A DNA stretch of 12,579 bases from a virus (taxonomy: Duplodnaviria > Heunggongvirae > Uroviricota > Caudoviricetes), in the IMG/VR virus record IMGVR_UViG_2703718805_000010. The stretch is one strand, 5' to 3'. The notes under the pieces are model-generated. The model was not told the origin of the DNA and searched no databases. It was given only the letters and a program-made list of their open reading frames with translations. The stretch's first letter is position 1, and the number at the start of each line of letters is the position of its first letter. Shown here one piece after another: positions 1 to 6,794 of the stretch. A program made the position numbers and the translations under genes.

Positions 1-273
1 CTCATCGTCCATTAGCAACCCCGCATGTGTCAGCGCATCCAGCGGCGCTTTCAGAATATTGTCCAGGTCACGGCGGCGCTTATCCGGTGGCTCGGCAATA
101 ATCTTTATCGCCAGCCTTCCGGACAGGCTTAATTTCAGCCGCTGCTGGCGAACAATAAGCGCCACTGCCCGGCGATAACGCTCCCCGGCTTTTGATACAA
201 AATATGTGCTGCCACGGCGTCGCCAGTAAGTGTTCACCGTCGGCGGGTAAGGTAAAACCAAATCTATGAGCAT
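1..273 (-). CDS. rusA: RusA-family Holliday junction resolvase; N-terminal 91 codons in window, 3' end runs off the window start
   Basis: ATG at 273..271 on the minus strand, open for 91 codons to position 1. Translation MLIDLVLPYPPTVNTYWRRRGSTYFVSKAGERYRR...PDKRRRDLDNILKAPLDALTHAGLLMDDE matches recalled E. coli RusA motifs (LPWPPS.N.YY...G and PDRRRRDLDN..KA.DALT.AG..DD). Track ORF 80..280 is another frame of the same DNA. Confidence 0.75.
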   Translation of the reverse strand, partial: MLIDLVLPYPPTVNTYWRRRGSTYFVSKAGERYRRAVALIVRQQRLKLSLSGRLAIKIIAEPPDKRRRDLDNILKAPLDALTHAGLLMDDE

Positions 274-285
274 CAGTCACCTCTT

Positions 286-1335
286 TTACCCAAGCACGCC
301 AGTTGCAAAGGCGTGATCAAGAAAACGAAAAATTAAATCAACCTGAGAACCATGCTTTTCTTCGAACGCCAGCGGATCCGCATGAAGCTCGTTGTGATGC
401 TCCCGACACAGCGGTAGCGTGAAAATATCGTGGGATTTTGTTCCCATTCCGCCCTGACCATGACCAATCAGATGATGAGGATCGTCCGCTGGCTTACCAC
501 AACACGCACACGGCTGTGTCTTTACCCAGCGTGTGTATTTCTCATTTACCCAGCGGCGACGTTTAGGTCGTTTCATGAAGGATTCCGGAGACTCCGGATC
601 AACGGCAATGCTGACCACCGTCTTTTCCTGTGGTGGGTTCTGTTGCTGGTGGGTGTGAGGCGGTAGCGCAATATTTTTTGTGCGCTGCTTCAGTATGCTG
701 GTGGCGGTCTGTTCTCCCGGTATGATGTCGCTTTCACGGTATACGGAGCGGATTTTTTCCGCCGGTAATCCCAGAGAACGACGCGCTACTGCCTCAGGTA
801 GTGCATCCACCACCTGATTGCAGGCCGCCCACCAGGATAATTCGGCCAGCGATAACTCCCTCTCCTGCGTGCCGCTTATTGCGTGACGGATGACGTCAAT
901 CATCCAGGCAACCAGATTCTGCTGAGCAAGTTGATCGAGTGATTCTGATGTCTGGTCGCGCAGCTGGTTGTCACAGTGCCAGCACAACACCATCGCGCCG
1001 GTACCGTAACGGTGAATGACTGTTTCGCTGTGATGATAATCGCCGTGTGGCCACTGGCAGGATTTAATATGGCGCAACAGCCAGTCAGACAATGCACCAG
1101 CACCACCAGCAGCACGAATCACCCGTGCGTTACTGAAAAACGGCAGCAATGTTTTGTCTTCCACTAGCGGCTGGCGAACGGCAGGAACAACCCCGGACGG
1201 CAGATTACGCATGCTTTTCGGTTCCGGCTCCACCAGTACCCGGGTATTGTGGAATACCGGCATGGATTCACGGCCCGGCTTAACGATCACCAGCCCGAGT
1301 TCCGGTACCAGAACAGGTCGAAGTAATACCCGCAC
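286..1335 (-). CDS. nin-region phage protein, probably DUF968/YdfU-like, with C-terminal Cys/His (HNH-like) metal-binding motif
   Basis: 349-codon ORF. GTG start at 1335 preceded by GGAGG (1340..1344, 4-nt spacer) and overlapping the upstream stop. C-terminus has CACCGKP...HH..GHG...H...C.EHHNELH spacing. Family name is from memory, not a search. Confidence 0.6.
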   Translation of the reverse strand: MRVLLRPVLVPELGLVIVKPGRESMPVFHNTRVLVEPEPKSMRNLPSGVVPAVRQPLVEDKTLLPFFSNARVIRAAGGAGALSDWLLRHIKSCQWPHGDYHHSETVIHRYGTGAMVLCWHCDNQLRDQTSESLDQLAQQNLVAWMIDVIRHAISGTQERELSLAELSWWAACNQVVDALPEAVARRSLGLPAEKIRSVYRESDIIPGEQTATSILKQRTKNIALPPHTHQQQNPPQEKTVVSIAVDPESPESFMKRPKRRRWVNEKYTRWVKTQPCACCGKPADDPHHLIGHGQGGMGTKSHDIFTLPLCREHHNELHADPLAFEEKHGSQVDLIFRFLDHAFATGVLG

Positions 1336-1336
1336 G

Positions 1337-1609
1337 TTACCTCCAGATGCGTTGCTGGAATGTGCGGGACGGACGCGGCGGGCGTTCGGAATAAAGGAGC
1401 CTGACGTAGATTATCCAGTGACGGTAGTCGAGGCTAAGGGCTTTCTTAAACTCATACCCACGTCTGCGGTAGTTATGAATCAGCCATTCGGCCTGTTCTT
1501 CAGTGCAGGGATCGTGCTGATACCAGTCATATTTGAATGTGTGAGAACACCGCCCTTGCCTGCTGGCAGGGGCGATATCAGAATTGTGATGTTTGGTATT
1601 GTGCGCCAT
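1337..1609 (-). CDS. hypothetical small nin-region protein (about 90 aa); start uncertain
   Basis: The track ORF runs to 1690, but that start is TTG and lies inside the terminator T-tract. First ATG is at 1609..1607 (MAHNTKHHNSDIAPASRQGRCSHTFKYDWYQHDPC...), with only a weak SD. Stop abuts the GTG start of the downstream gene. Confidence 0.4.
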   Translation of the reverse strand: MAHNTKHHNSDIAPASRQGRCSHTFKYDWYQHDPCTEEQAEWLIHNYRRRGYEFKKALSLDYRHWIIYVRLLYSERPPRPSRTFQQRIWR

Positions 1610-1678
1610 CGGTTGTCTCTGCTGGCGCAGCAGGTGCCAGTTGTTCAGGCTGGCGTGTGGATTGTAAACCAGAATGCC

Positions 1679-1707
1679 AGGAAAAAACAAAACCCGCGAA
1701 GCGGGTT
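1679..1707 (-). terminator. intrinsic terminator ending the restriction-modification transcript
   Basis: Minus-strand hairpin AACCCGC-ttc-GCGGGTT (1707..1691) followed by TTTGTTTTTTCC (1690..1679), about 70 nt downstream of the endonuclease stop at 1780. The + strand reading lacks a T-tract, so it looks unidirectional. Confidence 0.6.
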
Positions 1708-1779
1708 AGTAAAAATGTACTGAAGTCAATGACGTGCCATCACAGTTAAAATATGACAGACTCTATTTACGTAGAGATG

Positions 1780-2658
1780 TCAGACTGCAAGATCCAAGGG
1801 AAGATCAGAAATATCCTTTAATCTTTTACCATTAACCATCACGGAAAGCATGTCAGCTGCATCGCTGAGCCCCAGTATTTCAACTGCTGATATAAGTTCA
1901 TAAAGCGCAAAATGATACACGCAATCTATATCACCAGTACCAAGAGCAATAGACGCCAGACGACTTGGAGTAGGCTCAGCAGTAACAACCATTACATGAG
2001 GGAGATTTCCCTTACGGTTGCGAATAAGATTTAATGCCTCAGAACGAGCATTCTGGGCCCGGTCGCTTCTTATTGTCCATTTGCAGGAAATACTTGCGTG
2101 TAATATTGGTTTCCCACCATTCGAACTCCTGAGAGCTGACATGCGGGTAACAGAATCATCCACCAGTAATTCAGGACTGTTGATAACTTGATCACATTCA
2201 GGTTCTCTTTCAACAATAATATCTGGTGAAATCGTATAATCACTCCCCAGTGCAGCAGCTAGCTGAGGATTACTTTTTGCAGCACTATCCAATGCTATAA
2301 GATGGGCATATTGTTCATATTTAGCTATCTCTAATCTGTTTCTACCAGAAACCTGATGTACATTCCATTTTCCAGGGCGTAAGTGGCTGAGTTTAAAAAA
2401 GGTTTTTTCTATAAACTCTGCGCAGATACTCTCAAACTGATTACCAGATGTTTGCCCTGCAACACGTTCACCAATCGTTTCAGCCTGCAAGAAGCGAGCA
2501 ATTTCTCTTGCTATAGCTTTACTGTTTTTGTTACTGCTATCTGCGTTACTAACAACTCCGGCAGTATTAATTGTGAGCGTATTCAGTAACAATTGGGCAT
2601 GAAACTCCTTTCTGGCTTCAGCAAAACCAACTATGCTGTCAACCAAATCTCCATTCAT
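1780..2658 (-). CDS. type II restriction endonuclease, NgoMIV/Cfr10I-like (PD...K-X13-E active-site spacing)
   Basis: Start taken as ATG 2658..2656 with AAGGA SD 9 nt upstream, 13 nt after the methyltransferase stop; the track start at 2793 would overlap the methyltransferase by about 120 nt. Protein has SPDIIVE, then Lys 47 residues after the Asp (ISCKW), then Glu 14 residues after the Lys (ARSE). This matches the recalled NgoMIV catalytic residues D140/K187/E201. Gene sits directly downstream of a C5-MTase. Confidence 0.7.
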   Translation of the reverse strand: MNGDLVDSIVGFAEARKEFHAQLLLNTLTINTAGVVSNADSSNKNSKAIAREIARFLQAETIGERVAGQTSGNQFESICAEFIEKTFFKLSHLRPGKWNVHQVSGRNRLEIAKYEQYAHLIALDSAAKSNPQLAAALGSDYTISPDIIVEREPECDQVINSPELLVDDSVTRMSALRSSNGGKPILHASISCKWTIRSDRAQNARSEALNLIRNRKGNLPHVMVVTAEPTPSRLASIALGTGDIDCVYHFALYELISAVEILGLSDAADMLSVMVNGKRLKDISDLPLDLAV

Positions 2659-2671
2659 TTCTGGATTTCCT

Positions 2672-3796
2672 TCAGGCTGCTTGACTATTCTTACTGATGT
2701 TATTCTTATACCGTCCCTGCAAAACTCCATACACATATTGTGCGATTTTTGCCGCAAATAGCGGTGGAACAGCATTCCCGATCTGCTTTGCAATCTCAGT
2801 TTTTGAACCGGTAAAAATGAAATTATCAGGAAAAGACATTAATCTCGCTGCCTCACGATGAGTTATTGGCCGATCCTCTTCCGGATGTAAATATCGCCCT
2901 TTCTCCGGTTTGAAAAACTCAGTACGAATCGTTACTGAAGGTCTGTCCCACCACAGACGTCCAAACAAATCGGTCCCTCCAGATTTCTTTTTTAGCCAGC
3001 ACGCCGGGGTTATATCAGGTCTTTTTTTCTGTAAATCGAAACGGTTACCTCCTGGTGGAACCGCTTTATATCGCTCCAGAGAAACAGGTGTGGGATTACG
3101 CCCAAAATGTAAGTTCAGCGGAGGAAGTTCATTACGAATATCAGTTCCAACAGGAGCAGGTAAGTCACCAATTGCATCACGCGTACAGACCCATTCAGGC
3201 AAAGCGACATCCTTATCAGGGGAACGATGCGTTGGTGCTGGCGGGAACGCCGGAATACTATGCACATCGAAGAGTTCTCGTTTGATACCGATTGCTATCG
3301 TTCGTTTTCTTGTCTGAGGTACTCCATAGTCAGCAGTATTCAACACCATTGGATTAAGCAGAATAAAGCCCATGGATTTCGCTCTAAACGTAATGTCCGC
3401 AAACTCATCGCTTATCAGCAATCCGGGGACATTTTCCATGACGAACATACAAGCCCTTGAACGCTCAATGACATCCATATAAGGCTCCCACAATGCTCTT
3501 CGGTGATCACCATAACGATTCTTATTCAATAAACTGAATCCCTGACACGGGGGGCCACCTATGACCACATCAGCCTCAGGAACAGTATTGCTGGATGCCC
3601 ACTCCTCAATATTTGCCTGAACTCCATGCAAACCAAAATTGGCATTGTAGGTATTTATAGCTGCAGCATTATTATCAATAGCAAGGATACTTTCAAAGTA
3701 GTCAGACATCTCTCCATGAAGAAAACCATAAGATAATCCACCTGCCCCACAAAAGAGGTCTATCACTCTGAATTTATTTAATTCTTTCATCCGCAT
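2672..3796 (-). CDS. DNA (cytosine-5)-methyltransferase
   Basis: 374 aa with canonical C5-MTase motifs in order: motif I DLFCGAGGLSYGF, motif IV GGPPCQGFS, motif VI ENVPGL, motif VIII QTRKR, motif X GNAVPP. ATG at 3796 with GAGG SD 7 nt upstream. Confidence 0.9.
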   Translation of the reverse strand: MRMKELNKFRVIDLFCGAGGLSYGFLHGEMSDYFESILAIDNNAAAINTYNANFGLHGVQANIEEWASSNTVPEADVVIGGPPCQGFSLLNKNRYGDHRRALWEPYMDVIERSRACMFVMENVPGLLISDEFADITFRAKSMGFILLNPMVLNTADYGVPQTRKRTIAIGIKRELFDVHSIPAFPPAPTHRSPDKDVALPEWVCTRDAIGDLPAPVGTDIRNELPPLNLHFGRNPTPVSLERYKAVPPGGNRFDLQKKRPDITPACWLKKKSGGTDLFGRLWWDRPSVTIRTEFFKPEKGRYLHPEEDRPITHREAARLMSFPDNFIFTGSKTEIAKQIGNAVPPLFAAKIAQYVYGVLQGRYKNNISKNSQAA

Positions 3797-3974
3797 CCAT
3801 ATGCCTCAGATTAATGTTGAGCGTCTTACAGGACGCGTAATGTTAACTGGGGCTTTCTCTATCTGCCTTTTGGTGTTCATGCCTGAGGCAGACAGCCTCA
3901 GGCACCCGCAGCAATTCTACTTAACTCACGTCACCTCGCCAATATGAAATCAATCAGAAAGGTGATCCATAAAA

Positions 3975-4661
3975 TCACTCCTTCTCTTCTTTTCCGTAGT
4001 GGAGTTGGCCAATTTTGATAAGAGGGCGTCCCTGAGATTTGCGGTGTAGATTGGTATCGCGCAGAGAATACACACAGCCACAATATTCCTGCTGATAGAA
4101 TTTTTCGCGCTTGCTGATTTCAATCATACGGGACGAGCCGCCCTGCTTGCGCCAGTTATAATCCCAGTACACCATACCCGGATAATGCGCAACAGCTCGC
4201 CGCCCACACTCGTTAACCTGCTGCATATTTTTCCAGCGTGAAATGCCCAGTGAACTGCTGATCACACTGAAACCATTTTCAGCAGCGTACAACGCTGTCC
4301 GCTCAAAACGCATGTCAAAACACATGGTACAACGGATCCCCCTCTCAGGCTCCCATTCCATTCCTTTGGCACGTTCAAACCAGTTGTCGGTGTCGTAATC
4401 AGCATCGATAAACGGCACGCCGTGTTGTTCAGCAAAGCGAATATTTTCATCCTTACGAATTAAATACTCTTTCTGAGGATGAATGTTCGGGTTGTAGAAA
4501 AAGATGGTGTAGTCGATTCCCGAGGCCTGAAGCGCCTCCATCACTTCACCGGAACATGGAGCACAGCAAGAGTGCAGTAGTAGTTTGTTTGCCCCGTTTG
4601 GGAGCTCCAATTTAGGCCGTTTGAAATCAGCAATAGTCATAAATATTTTTATTGGGGTCAT
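3975..4661 (-). CDS. queH: QueH-family (DUF208) epoxyqueuosine reductase homologue
   Basis: 228-aa ORF with [28 protein letters not shown] and YCGCVYS blocks, which I recall as conserved blocks of B12-independent QueH. Start may be 4661 or the in-frame ATG at 4640; neither has a strong SD. Confidence 0.7.
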
Positions 4662-4814
4662 GAAAATAGCACAGAGTGTAGCATCAGAGCAGGGCTATCG
4701 GGAATATATGTCTAAATCTGGTAATATCTGGTTTTGACGCAAAGCGGACAACCACGCTGGCTCTACCCTGCGCCATGAAAATGTCAATTCACATCTGAAC
4801 TAATGCTCTTTAAT

Positions 4815-5240
4815 CTAGTAACGTCTAAAATATCTAACATTTCCTTGATAAAATGCCAGTACACGCTGCATAGCTTCGCTCTTCCGGCACTCGCGACAGA
4901 TTATGTTCATACGCCTGTCGTAGCGGCGTATTTCTCCGTCGGGTAATGTCCAGATAAGGCCCGGATCAACCACTGCAGGTTTCTTCACCTTTGCCCTTGA
5001 GAGTTTTTTGCGAGCATTTTGCCAGTCCTTACGCGCCTGTTCAGACGGGAATAACCCGTAACCAGAGTTGTATACATCGCCACTGGCAACCAGCTCTCTG
5101 GCAAGAACGCTCATCAGATATCTTGTCGCACCTGTCTTGGCTTCCAGTTGCCGTAACGTCTCGCGCCCACTCCGGCGTACTAGCTCAACAACCTGCCCTT
5201 TAATTTTTTCCCGCTCTTCTTGTGTAAATACTTTTGCCAT
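4815..5240 (-). CDS. hypothetical phage early protein (141 aa), basic C-terminus with CxxC
   Basis: ATG at 5240 with GAAGG SD 6 nt upstream; the track start at 5255 is TTG. Translation MAKVFTQEEREKIKGQVVELVRRSGRETLRQLE...ICRECRKSE... No family recognised. Confidence 0.5.
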   Translation of the reverse strand: MAKVFTQEEREKIKGQVVELVRRSGRETLRQLEAKTGATRYLMSVLARELVASGDVYNSGYGLFPSEQARKDWQNARKKLSRAKVKKPAVVDPGLIWTLPDGEIRRYDRRMNIICRECRKSEAMQRVLAFYQGNVRYFRRY

Positions 5241-5255
5241 AAGCGCCTTCGGCAA

Positions 5256-6026
5256 TCACTTTTCCGATACAACACGGCGGGAAGAATCAGTAATCTGTCG
5301 AACAATATCCCGGTGCTTGTTCAGCTCCCGCAGCGCGGCGCAGATTCGCTCCCACTTCTGAACATCACTTTTCGCCCTGCGCAGCGCCAGGTTTGCCCTG
5401 CGCAGGGACGGAAAAATCAGCTCATCTGCTTGCGTTTCGGTAAACGATAGCAACGGCTGCACAATGTCCGCCACAGTTTCTGTTTTAATTTCTTCCTGTG
5501 TTGCGGCTTCCCGGACTGGTAACGCAGCACCTGCTGGCTGAGGAAAGGCCTTACCATCATTTTCCGTTACCAGCGCGGCTTTCGGCTCTGCTGGTAAATT
5601 ATCGCCCGGCATGCAGTAACGAAATTTACCGTTCTGATTAACGCGTGCCAGGCGCCCCGTTGCTGTTACGACCGCCAACGTGGAAGCAACCTTGCGAATG
5701 CTAACACCGAACTTATCCGCCAGTTCCTCACACGTTTTAGCCCCATCCTGACCGATAAACTCAATCATCATGTCTGCGGTAACTTTTTGTTCGACCTCCC
5801 CGGTCAGCATATCCTGTGCTTCAGATTTTACTGGCCGCTCTTCGGTTACCCGGGATTCACCTTCGCCAGCCAGAAACCAGGTGTGACCAGTTTTATCAAC
5901 GACGCCATTTCTTTTGAGTTCCCACAGCTCGTTGACAGCATCTTCGCGGCTGATTCCAAGGCGCGATGCCACTACCTGTGAAGAGGCTTTTTTCAGTGCT
6001 TTCAGTGCGTCAAATACGGTTTCCAT
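5256..6026 (-). CDS. hypothetical phage protein (256 aa) with two helix-turn-helix/winged-helix-like segments
   Basis: ATG at 6026 with GGAGG SD 8 nt upstream. Segments VVASRLGISREDAVNELWELKRNGVV and CEELADKFGVSIRKVASTLAVVTATGRLARV look like DNA-binding wHTH units. Sits immediately after the DnaC-like gene. No confident family assignment. Confidence 0.55.
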   Translation of the reverse strand: METVFDALKALKKASSQVVASRLGISREDAVNELWELKRNGVVDKTGHTWFLAGEGESRVTEERPVKSEAQDMLTGEVEQKVTADMMIEFIGQDGAKTCEELADKFGVSIRKVASTLAVVTATGRLARVNQNGKFRYCMPGDNLPAEPKAALVTENDGKAFPQPAGAALPVREAATQEEIKTETVADIVQPLLSFTETQADELIFPSLRRANLALRRAKSDVQKWERICAALRELNKHRDIVRQITDSSRRVVSEK

Positions 6027-6047
6027 TAAAATTTCCTCCGGACAAAA

Positions 6048-6794
6048 TTACTTCACAACCCTCATATTGCTGACATTTGGACGCCAGCTATCCCAGTTAA
6101 ACGTCACCCATCGACCACCGCTCATGGTCATCCGGTCCATAATCCTCTCACCAAGAAGCGTGCTCATTGCGGCATGATTCAGGTTTGTTAACATCCCGAC
6201 ACTGCACAGTGATGCTGTCCGGCGATCAATTATCTGGTGTAATACCACCTGCTCGTTTTTCGTCTCCCGCTGAACGCCTATTTCATCCAGGACCAGCAAA
6301 TCAACCCCGCAAAGCTCCTGTAAAAATTTTTCCCCGGATTTGCCGTTGTCGTAGCTGTCATGCAACACGCTCATGACGTCAGACACGGTGACGATAATCA
6401 CGCTTCTCCCCTTCACCATCAGCCGGTTGCCCATCGCCGCTGCAAGGTGATTTTTCCCGGTGCCGGTTTTACCGCTGAACACAAAATTCGTGCACCCGGT
6501 CATCAGTTCGTCAGCTATGGATTTGGCCTGGCTCAGCGCGTATTTTTGCCCGTCGTTCTGCACCTGATAATTTGCAAACGAGCATTTGCTGTGCAGAGGC
6601 TGGATGCCCGAACGATTCAGGATTTTTTCCACCCGCAACTGGCGATTCTGGCGGTTAATCTCCTCGCTGCGTTTTCGTCCTTCAGCAAGTTGCCATTCCC
6701 GCCACTCCTCCACCGTCCGGTACGGTGGAACCGACCCCTGTGGTGCAAGTCTGCGAATACGTTCAAGAACCCCAACTGCCGCAATGTTTTTCAT
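6048..6794 (-). CDS. DnaC-like helicase loader (AAA+ ATPase), phage replication protein
   Basis: 248 aa, collinear with recalled E. coli DnaC: Walker A FVFSGKTGTGKNHLAAAMGNRL, Walker B DLLVLDEIGVQ, GMLTNLN, GERIMDRM, WVTFNWDSWR. ATG at 6794 lies 6 nt after the O-like stop. Confidence 0.9.
   Translation of the reverse strand: MKNIAAVGVLERIRRLAPQGSVPPYRTVEEWREWQLAEGRKRSEEINRQNRQLRVEKILNRSGIQPLHSKCSFANYQVQNDGQKYALSQAKSIADELMTGCTNFVFSGKTGTGKNHLAAAMGNRLMVKGRSVIIVTVSDVMSVLHDSYDNGKSGEKFLQELCGVDLLVLDEIGVQRETKNEQVVLHQIIDRRTASLCSVGMLTNLNHAAMSTLLGERIMDRMTMSGGRWVTFNWDSWRPNVSNMRVVK

Follow-up and report, generated by a model that had tools for sequence, protein, structure and literature searches.

The window analyzed here is the whole 12,579-nucleotide stretch of the virus record IMGVR_UViG_2703718805_000010, and it represents a Qin/Rac-type lambdoid prophage. 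Its genes encode an S24 repressor, a P22-Cro-like protein, YdaT, O-like and DnaC-like proteins, and DUF1627 and DUF977 proteins, followed by queH, with DUF968 and RusA genes downstream of queH; the other arm carries DUF1391, the DicF RNA, DicB and DUF1482. The features that concern us first are these:

3975-4640, minus strand: queH coding sequence, 221 aa (Pfam QueH, RefSeq WP_000150294.1, start conservation, and a model compared with PDB 7lc5/7lc7)
4815-5255, minus strand: DUF977 (Ren-like) gene, the upstream neighbour of queH (Pfam DUF977, 100.2 bits; PHROG 'Ren-like exclusion protein')
2672-3796 (RefSeq start 3790), minus strand: C5 cytosine methyltransferase gene (PF00145 DNA_methylase, 184.6 bits; PADLOC MTase_II)
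1780-2658 (RefSeq; ORF to 2793), minus strand: NgoMIV-family endonuclease gene (PF09015 NgoMIV_restric, 422.3 bits; PADLOC REase_II)
10699-10750, plus strand: DicF small RNA (Rfam, 75.8 bits; gathering score 48)
10820-11113, plus strand: DicB gene, after DicF

The preliminary description of this DNA had placed queH in a prophage, and the lambdoid setting was confirmed both in the window and in related loci. A 41-kb prophage region (L001) is near-identical to the window, with 97% identity over window positions 1-6048, and an identical arrangement is annotated on an O103:H2 chromosome, flanked by ompW on one side and by phage head genes on the other. The isolated 45-kb phage HannyBb carries a 95%-identical copy of queH (PP925841 33011-33697; L101 5001-5687), annotated there as 'hypothetical protein'. 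The assembly collection has 25,425 blocks in which the exact 221-aa protein is indexed, and in all ten places that were sampled the order was DUF977 - QueH - Hok - ... - DUF968 - RusA - Q, with DUF977 upstream of queH each time.

The gene had been described as the open reading frame 3975-4661, a minus-strand frame that encodes 228 aa when counted from its first ATG in the ORF list and that ends in a stop codon at 3975-3977. This reading frame is real, but its start is better placed at the ATG at 4640, which is the RefSeq start (giving 221 aa) and the point at which the alignment of homologues of 214-222 aa begins. The in-frame ATG farther upstream, at 4661, is not conserved among related copies, and ATG 4640, not ATG 4661, is most likely the true start. 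No recognisable Shine-Dalgarno sequence was found before either of the two.

A profile search assigned the product to Pfam PF02677 (QueH) with 221.5 bits and an E value of 1.1e-65 over profile positions 1-174 of 175; with a cut-off of 23.5 bits for this family, the score lies far above chance level. All four sequence blocks by which the protein had been recognised as a QueH/DUF208 homologue, including YCGC, were present, and the search confirmed 3975-4640 as encoding a full-length member of the family. RefSeq names WP_000150294.1 'epoxyqueuosine reductase QueH' in every genome record listed. As a search of NCBIfam with the protein gave no model match at E <= 0.01, the RefSeq name must derive from evidence of another kind than an NCBIfam model. 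The QueH call is correct and already annotated, and the reaction and structure of the family have been published; however, phage-centred resources (PHROGs and the annotation of HannyBb) list the gene as unknown where the bacterial annotation of RefSeq gives QueH. A literature search found no description of a prophage-borne QueH in E. coli. The PHROGs family is phrog_3217, 'unknown function', whose profile starts only at residue 34 of the protein, suggesting truncated gene calls.

The best PDB matches by sequence, and the sole solved relatives found in this way, were those to Thermotoga maritima QueH (PDB 7LC5/7LC7/9DEU; E 8e-22), which belongs to the same family, has the same fold and shares the H-x-CC-A-P, NPNI-x-P, RC-x-x-C and YCGC motifs with the prophage protein, although the two are only ~31% identical. 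We built an AlphaFold model from a 25-sequence alignment (pLDDT 75.2, pTM 0.76). The five top Foldseek matches of this model were all PDB entries of T. maritima QueH, with a target-normalised TM score of 0.81 and an rmsd of 2.9 Å, and the next matches, the PP-loop proteins LarE and TtuA, had TM scores below 0.4; the predicted structure has the three-dimensional QueH fold. Li and colleagues reportedly showed in 2021 that the conserved CCxxC/D, CxxC and CxC set binds a [4Fe-4S] cluster and an adjacent iron. The corresponding pattern, CCAPC...CxxC...CGC, is complete in prophage QueH, where all seven cysteines (C25, C26, C29, C104, C107, C187 and C189 in the 221-aa numbering) are present. Six of them align with cysteines of the T. 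maritima protein, whereas C29 aligns with Asp13 of its CCAPD motif. The T. maritima entries in the PDB include C9S and D13N mutants, so both of these positions have been targeted by the depositors. In a census of the family at 50% identity, CCAPC occurred in 57 of the 60 full-length representatives, and prophage QueH has the typical signature. The protein also has a basic C-terminal tail of ~25 residues that is conserved among proteobacterial QueH proteins but does not align to T. maritima chain residues 4-178 of 192, the portion compared.

Much closer relatives are found on bacterial chromosomes. Chromosomal QueH proteins of Enterobacterales and other Proteobacteria (Scandinavium, Enterobacter, Kluyvera, Erwinia, Providencia, Photorhabdus and Serratia) are 75-92% identical to prophage QueH over the full length, and their genes stand alone, as the prophage gene does. 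The setting differs, in that chromosomal queH lies among ordinary genes (tmcA is its neighbour in Providencia) and prophage queH lies in a lambdoid prophage; the surroundings of queH in Scandinavium, Enterobacter, Providencia and Ewingella are ordinary chromosomal ones with no prophage, and the copies in these four genera fall within the 79-92% identity of the many enterobacterial and other proteobacterial proteins that carry the annotation QueH.

Queuosine synthesis and its dependence on B12 were defined in E. coli, whose QueG relies on supplied corrinoid. The QueG (YjeS) protein of E. coli and QueH have the predicted conversion of oQ34 to Q34 in common (PMC5372724), but they are non-homologous and differ in their cofactors, with cobalamin and Fe-S in QueG and only Fe/Fe-S in QueH (PMC13443448, PMC4646009). 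QueG needs cobalamin for this final step, and knocking out queG (yjeS) alone causes oQ to accumulate in E. coli (PMC4646009, PMC11841063). At a presence threshold of 80% coverage or more, queG was found in all 5426 complete E. coli genomes, which bears out the earlier statement that E. coli normally uses QueG, whereas queH was accessory, being present in 995 of the 5426 (~18%). Every queH carrier therefore has both reductases. Such pairs occur elsewhere: Zallot and colleagues are said to have noted in 2017 that Acinetobacter baylyi ADP1 has both QueG and QueH. The QueG and QueH of Staphylococcus aureus are regarded as redundant, with different cofactors and an iron-dependent QueH (PMC13443448). 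These two species resemble queH-carrying E. coli in having, within one cell, two redundant reductases with different cofactor needs, but both of their genes are chromosomal, whereas the second enzyme of E. coli is prophage-borne and varies between strains.

From the family assignment, the ligand motifs and the relationship to the chromosomal proteins we infer that prophage QueH is enzymatically active, and we think it probable that the gene encodes a functional Fe-S, cobalamin-independent QueH, captured from Enterobacterales as an accessory ('moron') gene and serving lysogens as a B12-independent backup for Q34 maturation. Its predicted substrates are tRNA-Asp, -Asn, -His and -Tyr, in which it would convert oQ34 to Q34 with no need for cobalamin. 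Because queG is universal and QueG depends on corrinoid, prophage QueH would most likely free the last step of queuosine synthesis from the supply of B12, both in lysogens and during lytic growth. The reading that had been proposed, a prophage-borne QueH homologue offering a B12-independent route to Q34, is supported by the family HMM, by the sequence and fold matches to the solved QueH structures, by identities of 79-92% to chromosomal QueH of other Enterobacterales, by the prophage setting and by the presence of queG in every genome, and a role as a backup for Q34 maturation is plausible.

The sequence that accompanies the gene bears on when it would be expressed. Two further features were delimited by comparison of related copies:

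3971-4690, minus strand: queH module, consisting of the gene with ~50 nt upstream and ~4 nt downstream (blastn boundaries)
4683-4675, minus strand: putative extended -10 element TG-C-TACACT (TGCTACACT), 43 nt upstream of ATG 4640 (comparative alignment)

The similarity found by blastn extends over 3971-4689 in the comparison with another prophage (L004) and over 3971-4690 in that with the Scandinavium copy on the chromosome (L007). As DNA similarity is confined to 3971-4690, the mobile unit is the gene with ~50 nt of upstream sequence. Within this upstream sequence the block TCTGATGCTACA, which contains the -10-like TG-n-TACAcT, is invariant in six aligned copies, and the sequence farther upstream differs. 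The motif TGnTAnnnT lies at -42 to -44 in prophage copies and in chromosomal copies (Scandinavium, Kluyvera, Enterobacter and Symbiopectobacterium), and the sequence around it has fully diverged between prophage and chromosomal copies; the closest chromosomal copies thus have an extended -10-like element upstream in common with the prophage one. The element probably came in with queH, and queH probably has its own promoter. We picture a housekeeping-type enterobacterial queH that would have been captured along with its extended -10 element, within ~50 nt of native upstream sequence, and that would now be a stand-alone gene of the early-right region, between the replication/DUF977 genes and hok/sok. 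Transcription would start at its own promoter and, once the prophage is induced, would also reach it by read-through of the early-right operon. The consensus scan found no intrinsic terminator after queH, and transcripts may run on from queH into the downstream genes, as may those from the phage early-right promoter into queH. No riboswitch (e.g. preQ1) was found near queH with Rfam, whose only matches above the gathering score were DicF and a partial sok.

A different reading of the same region is that QueH acts only in lytic growth, as part of a delayed-early operon that tunes the host tRNA for phage translation, and that the gene is silent in the lysogen. The position of queH in the early-right operon, on the same strand and between the replication genes and the Q antiterminator, is what such a role would predict, and the two-hexamer consensus promoter scan gave no promoter upstream of queH on the coding strand and did not report the element at 4683-4675. 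However, the conserved extended -10-like element moves with queH and is common to chromosomal copies that need their own transcription, and differences in decoding between oQ and Q are not established. We therefore regard an exclusively lytic function as unlikely.

It is less likely still that queH is a neutral passenger, of no use to phage or host, that hitch-hikes in a successful prophage family. The gene is redundant with the universal queG, as a passenger could well be, and we know of no growth phenotype of queG loss in E. coli. In the test strain of one study, deletion of queG, and with it loss of the oQ-to-Q step, left growth unchanged (PMC11841063). Against this stands the evolution of the prophage alleles: comparison of the window allele with two others gave dN/dS values of 0.057 and 0.052 at dS of 0.27 and 0.45, which shows strong purifying selection and indicates that the protein has been kept functional during its residence in prophages. 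Prophage QueH has also kept 114 of the 115 positions that are invariant in 24 homologues, the exception being I142V, and queH is retained across mosaic prophages that differ in repressors, replication genes and neighbours. Carriage of the gene may bring a fitness benefit.

The preliminary description had also raised the question of whether queH and the two genes downstream of it act together. The methyltransferase and the endonuclease form a type II restriction-modification (R-M) pair. As had been described, the methyltransferase ORF, on the same strand as queH, starts at 3796 and leaves 178 bp between the two genes (184 bp with the RefSeq start at 3790). Comparison with the APEC O18 prophage L002, which has an intact hok/sok locus, resolved this interval and its surroundings into the following features:

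1709-3802, minus strand: type II R-M cassette of 2094 bp that replaces the mok/hokD reading frames (blastn breakpoints against L002)
3803-3972, minus strand: retained 5' part of a hok/sok locus, the '178-bp spacer' (Rfam RF01794)
3942-3914, minus strand: hok-promoter-like site in the spacer (consensus promoter scan)
3899-3875, minus strand: first hairpin of the hok mRNA leader
3807-3804, minus strand: mok Shine-Dalgarno sequence GAGG
1683-1707, minus strand: retained terminator hairpin of hok mRNA, aacccgc-ttc-gcgggtt with a T run after it, beyond the end of the endonuclease gene (sequence; hokD 3' end in L002)

The breakpoints fall at 1708/1709 and 3802/3803; where the window has the cassette, L002 has 287 bp with hokD, and homology between the two resumes at 1708. 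The Rfam model RF01794 (sok) matched the spacer with 61 bits, the real match covering only model positions 1-88 and ending exactly after the mok Shine-Dalgarno sequence, compared with 120.5 bits and a match throughout for the intact locus of L002. The distance from GAGG to the ATG is 7 nt for the methyltransferase gene (ATG at 3796) and 8 nt for mok in the intact locus. The promoter, leader, mok ribosome-binding site and terminator are thus common to the window and the hok/sok loci of lambdoid prophages (such as hokD of Qin), but the mok/hok reading frames have been replaced by the R-M genes; no Hok ORF is left in the window, where the cassette stands in place of the hokD region of L002. Because these frames are gone, the remnant is not a functional hok/sok locus. 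The R-M genes are plugged into the hok/sok expression frame, and queH is the usual gene upstream of that locus. The retained hok segment is found in 3923 of the 5426 genomes, in up to 7 places per genome. Over 1683-3972, one post-segregational killing module has thus been exchanged for another in the same expression frame, the R-M pair taking the place of exactly the mok/hokD reading frames; judging by the sequence of L002, the exchange seems to have cost the locus its sok promoter region and its 3' fold-back element.

It is very improbable that queH and the genes of the methyltransferase and endonuclease work as a single system, for instance a QueH-dependent modification tied to restriction. 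The genes do adjoin on one strand, no intrinsic terminator was detected between queH and the methyltransferase gene, and of the 60 complete E. coli genomes (out of 5426) that have the R-M pair, 57 have it next to queH. The converse does not hold: only 57 of the 995 queH-carrying genomes have the queH-methyltransferase junction, so that ~94% of the carriers are without the pair, and in 741 of the 995 hokD lies downstream of queH and fills the R-M slot. Even with an identical QueH protein, hok rather than R-M genes was found in all ten sampled contexts, and among 80 IMG/VR loci with identical QueH 55 were of the hok type and 21 of the R-M type. Moreover, the R-M pair sits within the hok/sok locus as a self-contained cassette of 2094 bp whose breakpoints are sharp, a PADLOC search for defence systems gave no match for QueH, and the chromosomal queH orthologues are stand-alone genes. 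The co-occurrence counts largely refute joint action of the three genes, which are neighbours by cassette exchange and not a functional unit; the R-M pair is a cassette without relation to queH, and only a minority of these prophages have it in place of hok. The cassette had no match in the phage genome collection. The NgoMIV site GCCGGC occurs once in the window against 3.0 expected occurrences, an avoidance that is not significant.

We also considered a recurring link between queH and a methylase in Erwinia and Pantoea and rejected it, as the methylase is a housekeeping dcm(-vsr) gene that is transcribed divergently, and its proximity is a coincidence. In these chromosomes the gene just upstream of queH, on the other strand, encodes a cytosine methylase (L013 3774-5183, L017 3870-5817, L019 ~4867-5553). 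The methylase of L017 is dcm-vsr and that of L013 is dcm (NF007772, 848-860 bits), neither of them an R-M system, and that of L019 was seen only as a tblastn match.

That QueH takes part in modifying phage DNA with 7-deazaguanines (by a Dpd-like or phage DpdA-type pathway) instead of in tRNA modification, which had been offered as an alternative, is scarcely credible: the 20 window ORFs tested with Pfam lack TGT/DpdA, FolE, QueD, QueE and QueC domains, in agreement with the earlier remark that the window has no DpdA/TGT-like or QueC/D/E genes, no DpdA/TGT, FolE or QueC/D/E gene is annotated in the near-identical 41-kb region, prophage QueH is nearly identical to chromosomal orthologues of the tRNA pathway and has no divergent residues, and to our knowledge reduction of the oQ epoxide has no counterpart in DNA. 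Phages are known to use queuosine-pathway enzymes on their own DNA (PMC6884629, PMC10516641), but the QueH step follows preQ1 insertion and QueA and acts on the oQ epoxide (PMC5372724). The phage clusters of DpdA with FolE/QueC/D/E resemble prophage queH in placing queuosine-pathway genes on phage genomes; their defining genes are absent from the window, and QueH acts at the end of the pathway that is specific to tRNA.

Returning to QueH as a B12-independent backup for Q34 maturation, K-12 has QueG alone, and ~18% of complete E. coli genomes add to it a prophage-borne, B12-independent reductase. If the gene is expressed, prophages would contribute a tRNA-modification enzyme as cargo, and strains would differ in the oQ/Q status of their tRNA when corrinoid is limiting. 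We tentatively go one step further and suggest, as a possibility somewhat short of an even chance, that prophage queH is a lysogenic-conversion gene, expressed from its own extended -10 promoter in uninduced lysogens, which would make Q maturation independent of corrinoid and of BtuB uptake in about one fifth of E. coli strains. If this is true, the strains affected would include major Shiga-toxin-producing lineages (O157:H7, O103 and O111) as well as ST131 and avian pathogenic lineages, and prophage content would decide how strains differ in oQ versus Q, along with any effects on how NAU/NAC codons are decoded. K-12, the strain used to work out the pathway, would not show such differences. 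The literature search brought up no account of this reading. The relevance of the gene is to tRNA modification and to the accessory genes of prophages, and no concept is changed by it.

The Qin prophage of K-12 is without queH. In this prophage (L103, MG1655 1645119-1645872) relB-relE lie directly upstream of hokD, at the position that queH occupies in its relatives, and the site upstream of hok holds variable cargo. DicF, DicB, DUF1391 and DUF1482 mark the window as a Qin-type prophage and are homologous to the dicA-dicB arm of K-12 Qin, with 86-96% identity.

A 78%-identical match in a record labelled 'Acinetobacter phage MD-2021a' was rejected as a case of carriage by a phage, as the record is evidently a bacterial chromosome: this 328-kb sequence (CAKLQH020000001.1, L102) contains soxR, cynX and tadA along with a QueH labelled 'putative prophage protein'.

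Two minor observations concern the other arm of the window. The STnc100 sRNA family gave a weak match right after DicF, at 10748-10957 on the plus strand, with 34.2 bits, below its gathering score of 47. The S24/HTH repressor ORF, listed as 8416-9189 on the plus strand with TTG (8416) as its start codon, shares 8 nt with the Cro-like gene (8208-8423, minus strand). Its real start is probably an ATG 19 codons downstream (MSTIATS...), related loci being called with a 238-aa product, and a start at that ATG leaves a normal divergent operator region.
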